From NCBI RefSeq assembly GCF_044324875.1, contig NZ_CP172185.1: a stretch of 64,000 bases of DNA; one strand, 5' to 3'. A program made the translations under genes and the position numbers. The notes under the pieces are model-generated. The model worked only from the letters and a program-made list of their open reading frames with translations. It ran no database searches and was not told where the DNA came from. This DNA is from Escherichia coli. Its GTDB lineage: Bacteria > Pseudomonadota > Gammaproteobacteria > Enterobacterales > Enterobacteriaceae. Shown piece after piece: positions 2,264 through 10,839 of the stretch (the stretch's first letter is position 1; each line of letters starts with the position of its first letter).

Positions 2264-4092
2264 GTGATCAGTTTGACGCAAAAGCGTTTTTAAAAACCGT
2301 AACCAGCCAGCCAGGCGTTTATCGCATGTACGATGCTGGTGGTACGGTTATCTATGTCGGCAAAGCGAAAGACCTGAAAAAACGGCTTTCCAGCTATTTC
2401 CGTAGCAACCTCGCTTCGCGCAAAACCGAAGCGCTGGTCGCCCAGATCCAGCAAATTGATATAACGGTTACTCATACAGAAACCGAAGCGCTGTTGCTGG
2501 AACACAACTACATCAAACTCTATCAGCCGCGTTACAACGTTTTGCTACGCGATGATAAATCTTATCCCTTTATCTTCCTGAGTGGCGATACCCACCCGCG
2601 TCTGGCGATGCATCGTGGTGCGAAGCATGCCAAAGGTGAATATTTCGGCCCGTTCCCGAATGGCTATGCCGTACGTGAAACACTGGCGCTACTGCAAAAG
2701 ATATTCCCCATTCGCCAGTGCGAAAATAGTGTTTATCGCAATCGCTCGCGTCCGTGTCTGCAATATCAGATAGGGCGCTGTCTGGGACCGTGCGTTGAAG
2801 GACTGGTGAGTGAAGAAGAATACGCTCAGCAGGTCGAGTATGTGCGCCTGTTTTTGTCTGGCAAAGATGATCAGGTGCTTACGCAACTCATTATCCGTAT
2901 GGAAACTGCCAGCCAGAATCTGGAGTTTGAAGAAGCGGCACGTATTCGCGACCAAATTCAGGCGGTGCGACGCGTCACCGAAAAACAGTTTGTGTCCAAT
3001 ACCGGCGACGACCTTGACGTTATTGGTGTGGCGTTCGATGCGGGCATGGCTTGTGTCCACGTATTGTTCATTCGTCAGGGTAAAGTGCTCGGCAGCCGCA
3101 GCTATTTCCCGAAAGTGCCGGGCGGTACGGAACTGAGCGAGGTGGTAGAAACCTTCGTAGGTCAGTTCTATTTACAAGGCAGCCAGATGCGCACCTTACC
3201 GGGTGAGATCCTGCTCGATTTTAATCTTAGCGATAAAACGCTGCTCGCCGATTCCCTTTCAGAACTGGCGGGACGCAAGATTAATGTTCAAACCAAACCT
3301 CGCGGCGATCGGGCGCGTTATCTGAAACTCGCGCGCACCAATGCGGCGACGGCCTTAACCAGCAAACTTTCGCAGCAATCTACCGTTCACCAGCGGCTGA
3401 CCGCGCTTGCCAGCGTATTGAAATTGCCGGAAGTGAAGCGGATGGAGTGCTTTGACATCAGCCATACCATGGGTGAACAAACCGTCGCTTCCTGTGTGGT
3501 GTTTGATGCCAACGGCCCGCTGCGTGCGGAGTATCGGCGCTATAACATTACTGGCATCACGCCGGGCGATGATTACGCGGCGATGAATCAGGTGCTGCGT
3601 CGGCGTTATGGTAAAGCTATCGACGACAGTAAAATCCCGGATGTGATCCTTATTGACGGCGGCAAAGGCCAGCTTGCGCAGGCGAAAAATGTCTTCGCCG
3701 AACTGGATGTCTCATGGGATAAAAATCATCCGCTGCTACTTGGCGTTGCCAAAGGAGCAGATCGTAAGGCTGGGCTGGAAACGCTGTTCTTTGAGCCGGA
3801 AGGTGAGGGATTTAGTTTGCCGCCAGATTCTCCCGCGCTGCATGTTATCCAGCATATTCGCGATGAATCACACGATCACGCGATTGGCGGGCACCGTAAG
3901 AAACGGGCGAAGGTCAAAAATACCAGTTCCCTGGAAACCATTGAAGGCGTCGGGCCAAAACGTCGGCAAATGTTGTTGAAATATATGGGCGGTTTGCAAG
4001 GTTTACGTAACGCCAGCGTTGAGGAAATTGCAAAAGTGCCGGGTATTTCGCAAGGTCTGGCAGAAAAGATCTTCTGGTCGTTGAAACATTGA
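2260..4092 (+). CDS. uvrC: UvrC, excinuclease ABC subunit C
   Basis: 610 aa; GTG start overlapping uvrY stop (GTGA); GIY-YIG motif ([24 protein letters not shown]) at N-terminus. Confidence 0.95.
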
Positions 4093-7753: not shown

Positions 7754-8251
7754 TTAGTTTTGAGTGTCGAGGGTAGAGAGTTCTTTGTCGATAAAATACA
7801 AACCTTCGCCGCTTTTGCCTGCAAGACTTAATTTATCAATAATCGATTTGAACAGTTTCTCTTCTTCATGCTGCTCAGAAACATACCATTGCAGGAAATT
7901 AAATGTTGGGTAGTCCTGATTGGTCATTGCAGCATGAGCCAGTTCGTTAATTTTCTGCGTGATTAATTGTTCGTGTTTATAGGTTTCCTGGAATAATTCA
8001 TCAAGTGAGGAATATTCAGCAAACGGAGATTCAACGGTATTAATACGCGGTAAGTTGCCGGTATCAGTCAGATAATCAAACAGACGCTGCATATGCGTCA
8101 TCTCTTCCTGGGCGTGACGGCGCAGGAACGCGGCAGCACCTTCGAAGGTATGATAGCTGCACCAGGCGCTCATTTGCTGATAAAGCAGTGAAGAGTACAG
8201 TTCCAGGTTCATCTGCTCATTAAGTTTTTCAATCATTTCTGGTTTCAGCAT
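7754..8251 (-). CDS. ftnA: FtnA, ferritin (iron storage)
   Basis: 165 aa from [30 protein letters not shown]...; ferritin ferroxidase residues; ORF track extends 5 codons upstream (MWSTI) but the known start is MLKPEM. Confidence 0.93.
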
Positions 8252-8422
8252 GATAGTGCTCCACAAAGGTTATATTTGTTGCTGTGGCGTCACTATAATT
8301 TGTTATTTTATTATTTGCAAAAGGTAAAATATAAACTTCATTTATTAAAAATACGAATGGGAATAAAACGCATTACCGCTATTTATTTAATCAGCGAAGA
8401 TCCCCCTCGCTGATTAAAACAT

Positions 8423-8746
8423 TTAGAGAAAGACAGGGAAGGCGGAATGATGGCACTGATATGACAAAGTGAATTCCGTATTCAAACATAAGGAATCCGC
8501 AAAAAGGCTACAGTTGCCTACTGGCTGACCAAAGGGGATAGCGTGGGTATAGCCTTCCTGTTGGCATGCGCGATCGGCGATCCCGCGACTGACATAACGA
8601 TCGGTATGGGCATGCTGCAAAAAAGCCTGGTCATAAACCAACCGTACAATACCTGTTGCCGCGTCAACTTCGCTCACATGGGCCTGGCGAGTAACCGTAC
8701 ACCCCGCCAGCGTTATTAATGAAAGAGTCAGAATCAGAAGTCTCAT
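8423..8746 (-). CDS. yecR: YecR, putative lipoprotein (flagellar regulon member)
   Basis: 107 aa; N-terminal lipoprotein signal MRLLILTLSLITLAGC. Confidence 0.85.
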   Translation of the reverse strand: MRLLILTLSLITLAGCTVTRQAHVSEVDAATGIVRLVYDQAFLQHAHTDRYVSRGIADRACQQEGYTHAIPFGQPVGNCSLFADSLCLNTEFTLSYQCHHSAFPVFL

Positions 8747-8910
8747 GGTCCAGCCAGAAGAGTAAGAGAAAGCACTATTTTACGTGTTACAGCGCTGCGA
8801 CAATGGCCGAAAAAGACGCCTGGCAGGCGCTATTTCTTGCCATCTGTAGGTGTCAGAAATGGGGGGGCTGCTTTTTGATTATCATTTTTATAACATTAAA
8901 GGGGTATTTA

Positions 8911-8926
8911 TGTGATTTACATCACA
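8911..8926. promoter_or_regulatory. CRP-binding site (TGTGA-N6-TCACA) upstream of azuC
   Basis: tgtgatttacatcaca is a perfect match to the CRP core consensus; about 80 bp upstream of azuC ATG. Confidence 0.7.
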
Positions 8927-9008
8927 TAAAGATTGATTTTTGTGATGGTTGTCATATTATAAGCGCAAAGACAATAACACCTGTATAACAAATGGTCGGA
9001 GTGCCGCG

Positions 9009-9095
9009 ATGAAACTGCGCAAAATCCTGAAAAGTATGTTCAATAACTATTGCAAGACGTTCAAAGACGTACCGCCAGGCAATATGTTCCGATAA
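9009..9095 (+). CDS. azuC: AzuC, 28-aa small membrane-associated protein
   Basis: Manual translation: MKLRKILKSMFNNYCKTFKDVPPGNMFR*; not in ORF track (too short); followed by intrinsic terminator (cctgctccggcaggtttttttgt, about 9099-9125). Confidence 0.8.
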   Translation: MKLRKILKSMFNNYCKTFKDVPPGNMFR

Positions 9096-9209
9096 CAAAA
9101 AACCTGCTCCGGCAGGTTTTTTTGTGTCCTGATGACGGTGGATGTGACTATCGCTGAAGATGTGAAGCCGCTACTATAACGGCTTTCAAAATGCTATCAG
9201 GAGTTTACG

Positions 9210-9461
9210 ATGTCCCAGCCGCTGAATGCCGATCAGGAACTGGTTTCTGATGTGGTTGCTTGCCAGTTGGTTATCAAACAAATTCTCGACGTTCTGGATG
9301 TAATCGCGCCCGTTGAAGTTCGCGAAAAAATGTCCAGCCAGCTGAAGAATATCGACTTTACTCACCATCCCGCCGCCGCAGACCCGGTCACCATGCGGGC
9401 AATCCAAAAAGCCATCGCGCTGATTGAACTCAAGTTTACCCCACAGGGCGAATCCCATTAA
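9210..9461 (+). CDS. yecJ: YecJ, DUF2766 protein
   Basis: 83-aa [30 protein letters not shown]... Confidence 0.85.
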
Positions 9462-9539
9462 AAAACCGCTGCTTCAAAAAGATGAGGCAGCGGTTTCTCA
9501 AAAACGTCATCGGCGCAATTGCATTAGCGCCGATGACGA

Positions 9540-10043
9540 TCAATGCAGCTGATGCGACACGACATTCAGAACATGTTGGTCGGTCTGCACAGGGCACATA
9601 CCAGCAAGTTTCGCACTGCGCACTTCATCAAGAATGGTTTGCAGCAACAGGCCATCATGCTGCTGTTCTTTTTCCAGATCGCGCAGGAAATTGACGGTTG
9701 AATCATCATTCAGTTCTTTCGCTTCATCGGCTAACTGTGCCAACGTACTAGAACGTTGCTCGTATTCTTCCATCGTTTTTTGGAAAAGTTCTTCCAGTGA
9801 GTTCAGTTTTTCACCGGGAACATCAATGGCTTTAACGATGGGAGTAGCGCCGACACTCTTCATAAAGTTAAACATGCGCATCATTTGGGTCACGTTACTC
9901 TGTGCCTGGGCGCGAAGGAAAGTGGCGGTGCCGTTCAGACTCTGTTCAGAACACCAGTTACTCAGGTGAAGGTAGAGATTGGATGCGTAAAACTCGCGGT
10001 TCATTTGAGAGTTGAGTTTGAGAAGCATTCCAGCGGTTGCCAT
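9540..10043 (-). CDS. ftnB: FtnB, ferritin-like protein
   Basis: 167 aa [30 protein letters not shown]...; ferritin-like fold, paralog of ftnA. Confidence 0.92.
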
Positions 10044-10839
10044 ACCTAATATCCTTATATCCAGAAGTGGAGAGGTGCAAGATAAATCAAAACACCATAA
10101 TTACTGTTTGCAGAATAATTCCTTTCTGCCGGTCCGAAATGTGATCGTGGAGTCAATTCTGACGATGATCTGAAATAAGAATAACGTCTGAACGGGTATA
10201 AGAAAATGCTTAAATCATCAAGTTTATATATTTTTACATTTCATTGATGAAATCAATGTAACTGCAATGAATTTTAATGATAGTGCTTTTTGTATCTTGT
10301 TGATATTAATCGATGAATTTGAATTCATGATGAAGTGATGATTTTATAAAACGTTTTTTCATTTTTGCGAGATGGCTCTCATTATACGTGTTCTGTTAAT
10401 TAATGAGCACAGTGATAATTAATGGCGAAATGAATGACGCGCATTTTCCACATCTTTGAGTTGTGGTTATTACACCCTTTCAAAAACTCAACGCCAGGTA
10501 ATGCGGCCTGTTGACTGGTTAAAAAGAAGACATCCCGCATGGGTACCAAAGACAACAAGGATTTCCAGGCTAATCTTATGGATTAATCTGCTGTGCACTA
10601 GACAATTTGTCAGACAAATTGGCTTTCCCTTATGTCTTTTCCCGCTAAATTTATGCACGTTCTCACTGTAATTCTGCGATGTGATATTGCTCTCCTATGG
10701 AGAATTAATTTCTCGCTAAAACTATGTCAACACAGTCACTTATCTTTTAGTTAAAAGGTAATGCTTTGTTTTCCGATTAATTTAACGAATGTCATTCGTT
10801 TTTGCCCTACACAAAACGACACTAAAGCTGGAGAGAACC

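Follow-up and report, generated by a model that had tools for sequence, protein, structure and literature searches.

Expression of the Escherichia coli araFGH operon is reportedly governed by two AraC sites, araFG1 and araFG2, together with one CRP site, as described in work attributed to Kosiba and Schleif in 1982, Hendrickson et al. in 1990 and 1992, and Johnson and Schleif in 2000. The CRP site of this promoter overlaps the −35 region, with AraC bound upstream of it (PMC2893085). For ftnB (yecI), the described leader is 127 nt long and contains four GGA motifs, three of which are bound by CsrA, one of them over the Shine-Dalgarno sequence (PMC6686035). Two start sites lie about 66 bp apart, both with A at +1 and both used in a condition-dependent manner (PMC13273102). 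CpxR is given as an activator of ftnB in published listings (PMC9600279, PMC2731931, PMC10100675), and ChIP places FNR at its promoter in vivo (PMC2690998). PMC3212961 cites Partridge et al. (2007) for an unusually distant upstream FNR site at E. coli ftnB, and work cited there found that H-NS binds and represses Salmonella ftnB. Binding of CsrA, CpxR, FNR, AraC and CRP to the region in general is taken here from the literature, boxes are assigned to the individual proteins tentatively, and the anatomy of the region, its conservation pattern and its polymorphism come from the present analysis.

In the 64,000-nucleotide stretch of E. coli DNA analyzed here (the window), ftnB (9540–10043, minus strand) and araF (10840–11829, plus strand) are divergent and separated by a gap of 796 bp (10044–10839), equivalent to MG1655 1,986,129–1,986,924. 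The ftnB ORF was 100% identical to K-12 FtnB and matched the Pfam Ferritin family, and AraF was 100% identical to its K-12 counterpart over 317 aligned residues. The gap had been described in the first-pass annotation as unusually long and AT-rich, which was borne out: its GC content was 35.3% vs. 50.5% window-wide, with 22.7% at 10200–10349. Where the annotated K-12 genome corresponds to the window, the flhD–uspC gap, which measures 1,555 bp with an IS1 element inside it, was the only one of similar size; the other gaps measured reached at most ~390 bp, or ~480 bp beside IS1. The inverted repeat singled out in the same annotation, ATGAATTtgAATTCAT (arms ATGAATT and AATTCAT around tg), was located exactly at 10313–10328, where it contains an EcoRI site. 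No annotated feature was present within the gap in the records of MG1655 and six other RefSeq E. coli genomes, and an Rfam search of 8000–12000 with E up to 1 gave no match within 10044–10839. A promoter and terminator scan of the gap returned no sigma-70 consensus promoter; its two weak terminator-like sites, 10436–10454 (minus strand) and 10691–10703 (plus strand), were judged not meaningful, and neither covers the repeat at 10313–10328. Overall, 10044–10839 is an ordinary control region that has already been characterized. Its earlier reading as the shared control region of ftnB and araFGH stood as regards the ftnB promoter and the araFGH promoter with its AraC- and CRP-type sites; a role for the repeat in this architecture found no support.

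The gap can be read as a composite of three parts: an ftnB-proximal module (10044–10247), an AT-rich, Escherichia-specific spacer of 306 bp (10248–10553) and an araF-proximal module (10554–10839). We consider it highly probable that its length stems from the loss of a DJ-1/PfpI gene and that the flagged palindrome at 10313–10328 is most likely a functionless chance product of AT-rich drift. BLASTN comparison with 31 non-Escherichia loci gave alignments only to 10554–10839 and to about 10048–10247/10259, and the spacer stands where other genera have a DJ-1/PfpI gene and its flanks. Of 38 related loci, 24 carried a full-length 185-aa gene of this family (Pfam PF01965, E = 2.6e-29) in their araF–ftnB gap, on the araF strand; among the genera concerned are Salmonella, Citrobacter, Lelliottia, Enterobacter, Huaxiibacter, Silvania, and Leclercia. 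A remnant or frameshifted copy was found in three further loci of the 38 (L014, L036, and L038), and the gene was cleanly absent from L007. The araF–ftnB distance was 789–800 bp across all Escherichia compared to about 1.0–1.44 kb elsewhere, and the intergenic flanks of the gene in C. amalonaticus total 834 bp (318 + 516), near the 796 bp of E. coli. We infer that the Escherichia ancestor lost the DJ-1/PfpI gene and that the gap is unusually long because two ordinary intergenic regions were thereby fused.

The spacer also differed from its flanks in constraint. Across eight Escherichia lineages, 28% of its columns were invariant, vs. 86% in the ftnB-side flank and 74% in the araF-side flank; among eight E. 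coli, it held 9.5 variable sites per 100 bp, vs. 1.5 and 4.2 in the flanks. A tblastn search of the E. coli spacer for traces of the DJ-1/PfpI gene gave nothing better than E = 0.12 and an nhmmer search starting from the spacer nothing better than E = 7; a profile built from 22 non-Escherichia central segments matched only the overlapping AraC site. Given this absence of detectable homology to the gene or its flanks, at the protein or nucleotide level, either a decayed remnant or unrelated replacement DNA is compatible with the spacer. Resemblances picked out by eye (HIFELWLLH vs. HIFDFALTL, and CTGGTTAA vs. CCTGGTAA) were without statistical support and were dropped. Judging from its AT content and from the Salmonella ftnB data cited in PMC3212961, the spacer would probably act as AT-rich upstream DNA coated by nucleoid proteins such as H-NS. 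A CRP-like sequence within it, TGCGAgatggcTCTCA (10366–10381, two mismatches), shares 12 of 15 bases with 10680–10694 and is partly conserved within Escherichia; an equally good site occurred in 45% of random regions, and it is a weak candidate only.

The ftnB-proximal module of about 200 bp was kept across genera, and the known elements of ftnB control fall into place within it. A published ftnB start site (NC_000913.2 position 1984821, 128 nt 5′ of the ATG; supplementary start-site data of PMC3415461) maps to 10171 of the window, where the published upstream sequence ...GACGTTATTCTTATTTCA also ends (PMC3415461). From this distal start (an A), the minus-strand leader spans 128 nt (10044–10171) and carries four GGA motifs, seen as plus-strand TCC at 10052, 10060, 10120, and 10133. 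The corresponding, annotated −10 element is TATTCT at 10178–10183 (minus strand); the counterpart of this block in Citrobacter is GCTATGCT. The same hexamer recurs on that strand 66 bp downstream (10112–10117), with a predicted proximal start at A 10105, which suggests that it serves the second ftnB start. The CpxR consensus is GTAAA-N5-GTAAA, and a consensus scan identified GTAAAAATATATAAA (10223–10237, minus strand, one mismatch, centered at about −59 from the distal start) as a candidate box. The surrounding block ATGTAAAAAAnnATAAA / GTAAGnnnnnGTAAG was kept across genera. In the gap as a whole, the best match to the 19-mer Fur sequence GATAATGATAATCATTATC had 7 of 19 mismatches, which 88% of random regions equaled, and matches to the ArcA consensus were at chance level.

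All AraC-type half-sites and CRP-like sites A and B lie in the 286 bp proximal to araF, a module that is itself conserved across genera. Placement relied on consensus scans and on cross-genus footprinting (36 sequences, at least seven genera), which clearly delimited the constrained blocks of the region; the AraC consensus and the comparison with araI draw in part on the oligonucleotides in PMC2893085. Farthest from araF is a minus-strand tandem site, cAGCAGATTAATCCATA-agat-TAGCCTGGAAATCCTTG (10556–10593), with the 17+4+17 layout of araI1–I2. Its half-sites at 10577–10593 and 10556–10572 had one and two mismatches, respectively, to TAGC-N7-TCCATA. An equally good half-site occurred in 3% of random regions, and the better one never exceeded one mismatch in any of the 36 sequences. 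A second minus-strand tandem site, CAGTGAGAACGTGCATA-aatt-TAGCGGGAAAAGACATA (10631–10668), had two and three mismatches (two at 10631–10647), and the block TTATGTCaTTTcCCGCTgAATtTATGyACG...TACTGTAATTCTG was ~90% conserved across genera. Both pairs show a 21-bp direct-repeat register.

Closer to araF, CRP-like site A, TGTGAtattgcTCTCC (10680–10695), departed from TGTGA-N6-TCACA at exactly two positions in each of the 36 sequences, with an invariant TGTGAT, and the mean column identity of 10680–10719 was 93%. It is followed by the invariant minus-strand block TATGGAgaattaatttcyCGCTA (10696–10718), where both AraC boxes, B (TCCATA) and A (TAGC), are perfect but 13 nt apart in place of the canonical 7 nt. 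Depending on the real core promoter, this block is either a proximal AraC site or core-promoter spacer plus −10 region. CRP-like site B, TGTCAacacagTCACT (10725–10740), had two mismatches in E. coli, two to four in Escherichia and five to eight in other genera. The plus-strand block GGTAATGCyTTGTTTT (10757–10772) was nearly invariant in all genera and is a candidate extended −10 element (TGc-TTTGTT) or leader element; nine of 12 of its bases match what we take to be the gal P1/P2 −10 region, TTATGCTATGGT.

Two candidate core promoters for araFGH follow from this arrangement. If transcription started at A 10729, TAAAAC (10717–10722) would be the −10 element and CRP site A would occupy a class II position at −41.5; a start at 10774/10775 would place CRP site B at −41.5/−42.5. 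With the 10729 start, araFG1/araFG2 would correspond to 10631–10668 and 10556–10593, and with the 10775 start to 10681–10718 and 10631–10668. Conservation favors site A with the 10729 start. Hendrickson et al. (1992) reportedly describe a galP1-like promoter in which a G at −12 matters, and this together with the invariant TGcTTTGTT block favors the start at 10775. The sole araF start in one start-site data set, supported by three reads from arabinose-free cultures, falls at 10582, within the distal AraC site, and does not mark the induced promoter (PMC3415461); a sigma-S study reports two araF promoters. The araF leader holds, on the plus strand, the 8+1+8 repeat AACGAATGtCATTCGTT (10784–10800) and after it TTTT; the repeat was intact only in E. 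coli and in part in E. albertii, and folding of the leader RNA was no better than that of shuffled sequences (z = +0.2 to +0.9). The Shine-Dalgarno region CTAAAGCTGGAGnnAACC with the araF ATG at 10840 (10821–10842, plus strand) was conserved, and the mean column identity of 10820–10839 was 94%.

The gap was rich in perfect inverted repeats, with five compared to a null mean of ~0.5 (P about 5e-4 to 7.5e-4) and a density of 6.3 per kb compared to 0.61 per kb window-wide. This enrichment means that the prior for function of a palindrome here is not negligible. The flagged palindrome was nevertheless not special by itself, because 41% of random regions matched or beat it: in 796-bp Markov-1 sequences of the same composition, this was the share holding a perfect inverted repeat with arms of at least 7 bp and a loop of at most 6, and with the loop limited to 2 it was 23%. 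Two repeats in the gap were stronger, those at 10603–10621 (9+1+9) and 10784–10800. A further one, CATTGATgaaATCAATG (10242–10258, 7+3+7), overlaps a 7+2+7 repeat at 10238–10253, and its DNA hairpin was calculated at −4.6 kcal/mol (z = −1.9). Within Escherichia, only its ftnB-proximal half was conserved (TCAATGAAATGT, minus strand). It reads TTGAT-N3-ATCAA at 10244–10256, which was considered as an FNR site and rejected on account of its wrong spacing.

Conservation data pointed to a short evolutionary history for the flagged palindrome. Its sequence, ATGAATTTGAATTCAT, occurred once in the whole window, and only two of its 16 columns were invariant in the eight Escherichia lineages. The palindrome was confined to E. 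coli proper, being absent from the closest non-coli lineage (where GTATATTTAAACTTGT replaces it), E. albertii, E. whittamii and other Escherichia; its arms were not kept across related species, as those of an operator should be. Within E. coli, positions 10312 and 10313 vary: among 5,426 genomes queried with exact 30-mers, 3,247 carried the K-12 type and 1,183 the window type, and the outer pair was broken (GTGAATT...) in at least 358. As a single-stranded DNA hairpin it reached only −3.6 kcal/mol (z = −1.5). No RNA family, conserved ORF or annotated feature covers it, and it does not coincide with a Nac-type ATA-N9-TAT pattern. The nearest AraC-type box is 228 bp away and the araF ATG 512 bp away; on the opposite side, the ftnB start sites, −10 elements and CpxR box (10105–10237) are at least 76 bp distant. 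The known sites could essentially all be placed without the palindrome, whose sole contact with any of them is one base, 10313, shared with an adjoining FNR-type box. The flagged palindrome is thus young and variable, and most likely without a function of its own.

The palindrome at 10603–10621 is a better operator candidate. This perfect 9+1+9 repeat, CAATTTGTCaGACAAATTG, is flanked on either side by a canonical AraC tandem site, its DNA hairpin was calculated at −7.3 kcal/mol (z = −5.7), and a dimeric regulator might bind it; it could be assigned to none of the known araFGH regulators. Its core, TTGTCNGACAA (10607–10617), occurs exactly once in the window and was unchanged in 22 of the 36 sequences (at least seven genera), 230–234 bp from the araF ATG; the central base varies freely, and the core was lost in the C. 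freundii complex. Its GT-N3-AC pattern resembles operators bound by GntR regulators of the FadR/PdhR subfamily. That 10603–10621 may be the operator of a third araFGH regulator or, as a weaker variant, that the flagged palindrome and its FNR box form a recent, E. coli-specific operator far upstream of ftnB, is a tentative proposal that we think will probably prove wrong. If the former were true, the classic araFGH map would still lack one element, at 10603–10621 instead of 10313–10328.

The FNR-type box, TTGATattaATCgA (10300–10313), is the sole site of a known type near the flagged palindrome and its one plausibly functional neighbor. It matches nine of ten specified bases, is centered at about −135.5 from the distal ftnB start and is perfect in its K-12 version (TTGAT-N4-ATCAA), and we infer that it is the far-upstream FNR site of Partridge et al. 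(2007). Across Escherichia, only the left half, TTGATA, was invariant; the box was complete only in E. coli, in which its right half is polymorphic. Taken as a recent, E. coli-specific ftnB operator, the palindrome itself would be bound by a dimeric regulator, either FNR at a weak or extended site or a partner at −135/−150, acting through looping or displacement of H-NS. The abutting FNR box, the in vivo binding of FNR at the ftnB promoter (PMC2690998), the far-upstream site cited in PMC3212961 and the abundance of palindromes in the gap are all in its favor. So is the fact that at least 82% of the 5,426 E. coli genomes carry the palindrome intact (30-mer counts), and a function limited to E. 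coli proper would be compatible with the conservation data. By eye, however, the palindrome halves TGAAT and ATTCA, which are 4 nt apart, agree with the FNR half-site at only three of five positions apiece. Polymorphism within E. coli affects both the FNR box, in its right half, and the palindrome, at its first base, and neither that half nor the palindrome is present in sister lineages. Literature cited in PMC3212961 also doubted that FNR activates ftnB from such a distance in E. coli. We regard such an operator as improbable.

A role as an ArgR operator (ARG box), tying ftnB or araFGH to arginine availability, appears very improbable, despite a core, TGAAT-ttga-ATTCA, that matches the consensus TGAAT-W4-ATTCA at ten of ten specified bases. 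The exact core occurred in only 0.85% of random regions, a figure to be read knowing that the resemblance was noticed after the fact and among many motifs; against the 18-mer wnTGAATwwwwATTCAnw, the site has three mismatches. Functional ArgR operators need two ARG boxes 2–3 bp apart. No partner was present at this spacing, and the next best 18-mers had four to five mismatches and lay at wrong distances. A second exact core at 9699, within the ftnB coding sequence, indicated that chance copies occur in the window. Like an ARG box in its exact TGAAT-N4-ATTCA core, the palindrome differs from one in being single, partnerless, unconserved across Escherichia and without an arginine-gene link, and a literature text search for ArgR with ftnB showed no reported link among the abstracts listed or in the one hit looked at closely.

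We give hardly any credence to the palindrome as the start of a small-protein gene. Each arm does contain an ATG, one opening a 34-codon minus-strand ORF present in the program's ORF list (10224–10328, ATG at 10328) and the other five codons on the plus strand (ATG at 10313), but the ATG and frame are gone in the closest Escherichia lineage, no Shine-Dalgarno sequence was seen by eye, the ORF would enter the ftnB promoter, and the curated MG1655 record lists AzuC and YecV yet nothing here. An AraC, CRP or Fur site of the araFGH or ftnB promoters can practically be dismissed, as nothing but location in the shared control region speaks for it: no AraC half-site (≤3 mismatches), CRP site (≤3) or Fur box (≤7) overlaps 10313–10328, the palindrome is an inverted repeat and araI-type operators are direct repeats, and the reporter fragment described as holding all known araFGH regulatory elements begins at about 10466, downstream of it (PMC2893085).

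With the flagged palindrome read as a chance product of drift in a gap lengthened by gene loss, it would contribute nothing to the classical arabinose promoter or to the promoter of the moderately studied ferritin-like gene. In practical terms, annotators should be warned that the whole 800 bp need not be regulatory.

Compared with other enterobacterial gaps left by gene loss, the ftnB–araF gap lacks a recognizable pseudogene fragment in Escherichia, but shares with them conserved syntenic flanks, retention of the gene in outgroups and independent decay in other lineages (a frameshift, a 45-aa remnant and a clean deletion). Its long AT-rich upstream stretch of 23–29% GC recalls the H-NS silencing and anti-silencing of ferritin genes (E. 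coli ftnA and Salmonella ftnB), with the difference that the E. coli ftnB gap is without a Fur-like box; by this analogy, such silencing would be a likely mode of action only. With the known regulation of ftnB the locus agrees in leader length, the four GGA motifs, the start site and its −10 element, and CpxR- and FNR-type boxes at sensible positions; it differs in having a polymorphic FNR box as far out as about −135, complete only in E. coli, and in that the flagged palindrome matches no reported ftnB regulator. Relative to the described E. coli araFGH promoter, three AraC-type blocks and two CRP-like sites were recognized here, and the flagged palindrome is no part of it. It is nonetheless the same locus, with AraC-type half-sites upstream of a −35-overlapping CRP site, the reverse of the araBAD order, and with every AraC-type half-site pointing away from araF.

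The gap at 10044–10839 (796 bp) separates two divergent genes, ftnB, an ORF at 9540–10043 (−) with a Pfam Ferritin match and a product identical to K-12 FtnB, and araF, an ORF from 10840 (+) whose product showed identity with K-12 AraF across 317 aligned residues. Its GC content was 35.3%, compared to 50.5% for the window, with a low of 22.7% at 10200–10349. The long, AT-rich ftnB/araF region with an inverted repeat described in the first-pass annotation was borne out, the repeat ATGAATTtgAATTCAT lying exactly at 10313–10328. Of 5,426 complete E. coli genomes, 5,412 contained the gap sequence with 95–99% identity, and the identity to the MG1655 gap was 98.9%, the window being E. coli but not K-12. 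Along the corresponding stretch as annotated in K-12, the flhD–uspC gap alone was of comparable length, and the remaining gaps measured were at most ~390 bp, or ~480 bp beside an IS1 element. No annotated features were present inside the gap in MG1655 or the other RefSeq records inspected.

The flagged palindrome at 10313–10328 is real, yet statistically unremarkable, unconserved and polymorphic. Among Markov-1 random sequences with the length and composition of the gap, 41% held one or more perfect inverted repeats with arms of at least 7 bp and a loop of at most 6, and 23% held such a 7-bp-arm repeat with a loop of at most 2; by itself, the palindrome is no more than chance expectation. The DNA hairpin it can form is weak, at −3.6 kcal/mol (z = −1.5). 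The gap overall was enriched in short perfect inverted repeats (5 observed, P ~5e-4 to 7.5e-4), two of which were stronger: CAATTTGTCaGACAAATTG at 10603–10621 and AACGAATGtCATTCGTT at 10784–10800. Columns invariant across eight Escherichia lineages made up 86% of the ftnB-proximal block, 74% of the araF-proximal one and 28% of the spacer between them (10248–10553), where the palindrome lies; in the palindrome itself, 2 of 16 were invariant. Its position read GTATATTTAAACTTGT in the closest non-coli lineage and was occupied by unrelated AT-rich strings in the remaining Escherichia species. Variable sites among eight diverse E. coli numbered 9.5 per 100 bp in the spacer vs. 1.5 and 4.2 in the flanks, and positions 10312 and 10313 were both variable. 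Exact 30-mer matches over 5,426 genomes assigned the K-12 type (ATCAATGAATT...) to 3,247 genomes, the window type (ATCGATGAATT...) to 1,183, and a type with the outer pair broken (ATCGGTGAATT...) to 358, leaving approximately 630 with other variants.

The core of the palindrome is an exact match, noticed post hoc, to TGAAT-N4-ATTCA, which we take to be the ARG-box core consensus and which is expected in 0.85% of random sequences. An ArgR operator is very unlikely: the partner box that such operators require was not found, a second exact core was located within the ftnB coding sequence, and a limited literature text search, mainly of the abstracts listed, returned no ArgR–ftnB connection. Scans placed no Rfam family and no terminator over the palindrome, and pattern scans for Fur, ArcA and Nac gave no match there. 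The 34-codon ORF opening at its right-arm ATG is unconserved and carries no annotation.

The unusual length of the gap is best explained by lineage-specific loss of a DJ-1/PfpI gene. Scanning one genome per species with FtnB yielded 38 loci, in which the araF–ftnB gap measured 789–800 bp in 7/7 Escherichia loci and ~1.0–1.44 kb in Citrobacter, Lelliottia, Enterobacter, Huaxiibacter, Silvania and Leclercia. The extra DNA outside Escherichia was an ORF of 185 aa that runs on the same strand as araF and belongs to the DJ-1/PfpI family (PF01965, E = 2.6e-29), for example at 2927–3484 (−) in the related ftnB locus L008 and at the same position in 23 other loci, corresponding to window 10248–10553. 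The gene was full-length in 24 of the 38 loci, in these six genera and Salmonella (including two Salmonella loci without araF), and was absent between araF and ftnB in all Escherichia loci. Decay outside Escherichia is independent: one locus kept a 45-aa remnant (L014), one a frameshifted copy (L036) and one a partial copy (L038), and the gene was cleanly missing from L007.

When the E. coli gap was compared with other genera by BLASTN, only two blocks aligned, an araF-proximal one of 286 bp (10554–10839; 70–80% identity) and an ftnB-proximal one of ~200 bp (10048–10247/10259). Alignment of the 306-bp spacer was confined to Escherichia, and tblastn, nhmmer and a nucleotide profile detected no similarity of it to the DJ-1/PfpI gene or to that gene's flanks. 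In C. amalonaticus, the intergenic regions on either side of the gene sum to 834 bp, a figure near the 796 bp of E. coli. On the simplest reading, gene loss in the Escherichia ancestor accounts for the gap length and would have fused two ordinary intergenic regions. The spacer also contains a CRP-like sequence, TGCGAGATGGCTCTC (10366–10381), alike in 12 of 15 bases to the conserved araFGH CRP-like site TGTGATATTGCTCTC (10680–10694); it could be due to chance or be an orphaned control site of the lost gene. Separately, araF and araG were missing from loci of S. enterica subsp. diarizonae (L009, ~1866–2830) and subsp. arizonae (L012, 2355–2814). L009 retains an araH 3′ fragment (matching window 13756–14599) adjoining an araFGH control-region remnant (matching 10607–10725 and 10796–10839), and L012 retains an araH fragment only; these remnants are scars of araFGH deletion.

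The known-type sites, which the first-pass annotation had mapped incompletely, could be placed without the flagged palindrome, which is unnecessary for placing any of them. Its one notable neighbour is an FNR-type box; of the other sites, the nearest lie 76 bp away on the ftnB side and 228 bp away on the araF side. On the ftnB side, the published transcription start at NC_000913.2 position 1984821 (PMC3415461 supplement) corresponds to window 10171, the start farther from the ftnB ATG, and is preceded by TATTCT at 10183–10178 (−). A second, identical TATTCT lies 66 bp downstream (10117–10112, −), a spacing that agrees with a 2026 report of two ftnB starts ~66 bp apart whose use switches with condition (PMC13273102). 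A putative CpxR-type box, GTAAAAATATATAAA at 10223–10237, found by consensus scan, is kept across genera, and membership of ftnB in the Cpx regulon has been reported (PMC9600279, PMC2731931, PMC10100675). The FNR-type box, TTGATattaATCgA at 10300–10313, shares its last base with the flagged palindrome and is centred ~135 bp upstream of the distal start; it matched 9/10 specified bases in the window strain and all in K-12, with conservation within the genus limited to the left half. FNR occupies the ftnB promoter in vivo (PMC2690998), and an FNR site located unusually far from the gene on its upstream side has been reported in E. coli, together with doubts that it activates ftnB (Partridge et al. 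2007, as relayed in PMC3212961). We infer that the box at 10300–10313 is this site. Beyond ftnB, MG1655 synteny placed the dual-function small RNA AzuR/AzuC and its 28-aa protein (MKLRKILKSMFNNYCKTFKDVPPGNMFR) at ~8967–9125 (+); an Rfam scan with E up to 1 gave no match for this RNA, the only sub-threshold matches nearby being STnc370 (9091–9155, −) and rsmX (9042–9122, +).

On the araF side, every AraC-type half-site found by consensus scan lay on the − strand. The better half of the distal tandem (10556–10593) had 0–1 mismatch in 36/36 sequences, a middle tandem was placed at 10631–10668, and an invariant block at 10696–10718 contained perfect TCCATA and TAGC boxes whose spacing is non-canonical. 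Between the two canonical tandems lies the perfect 9+1+9 palindrome CAATTTGTCaGACAAATTG (10603–10621), the most interesting leftover of the region. In a set of 36 araF-upstream sequences covering at least seven genera, 22 contained its exact core TTGTCNGACAA, with a varying central base, at a fixed 230–234 bp from the araF ATG; the core was lost in the C. freundii complex. Judged from sequence, it looks like a candidate operator for a dimeric regulator, its GT-N3-AC presumably being the pattern of FadR/PdhR-type GntR proteins.

A CRP-like site at 10680–10695 had exactly 2 mismatches in 36/36 sequences, and another at 10725–10740 was good in Escherichia only. The former, universally conserved, is at −41.5 of a candidate araFGH core promoter starting at ~10729 (−10 TAAAAC). 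The latter is at −41.5/−42.5 of a second candidate, starting at ~10775, with the invariant block GGTAATGCyTTGTTTT, which we take to resemble the gal P1/P2 −10 region. Both may exist, since two araF promoters were reported in vitro in a sigma-S study (PMC3141248); the choice between them leaves the verdict on the flagged palindrome unchanged. Published data (PMC3415461 supplement) also include an araF-oriented start at 10582 (+), very weak at 3 reads, which lies within the distal AraC site with GCTAATCT ahead of it. Three copies of the AraC A-box GCTA with A/T-rich sequence after it are present (10569, 10644, 10715), and each also serves as a −10-like element. In the araF leader, the 8+1+8 repeat AACGAATGtCATTCGTT at 10784–10800 (+) is followed by TTTT; it is intact in E. 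coli only and partial in E. albertii. The leader was predicted to fold no better than shuffled sequence.

Overall, the gap is an ordinary divergent control region that has already been characterised. The ftnB leader contains four GGA motifs, the same number as in the CsrA study (PMC6686035). A reporter described as holding all known araFGH elements begins at ~10466, and the site order found in the gap is the same as the published one, with AraC upstream and CRP overlapping the −35 region (PMC2893085).
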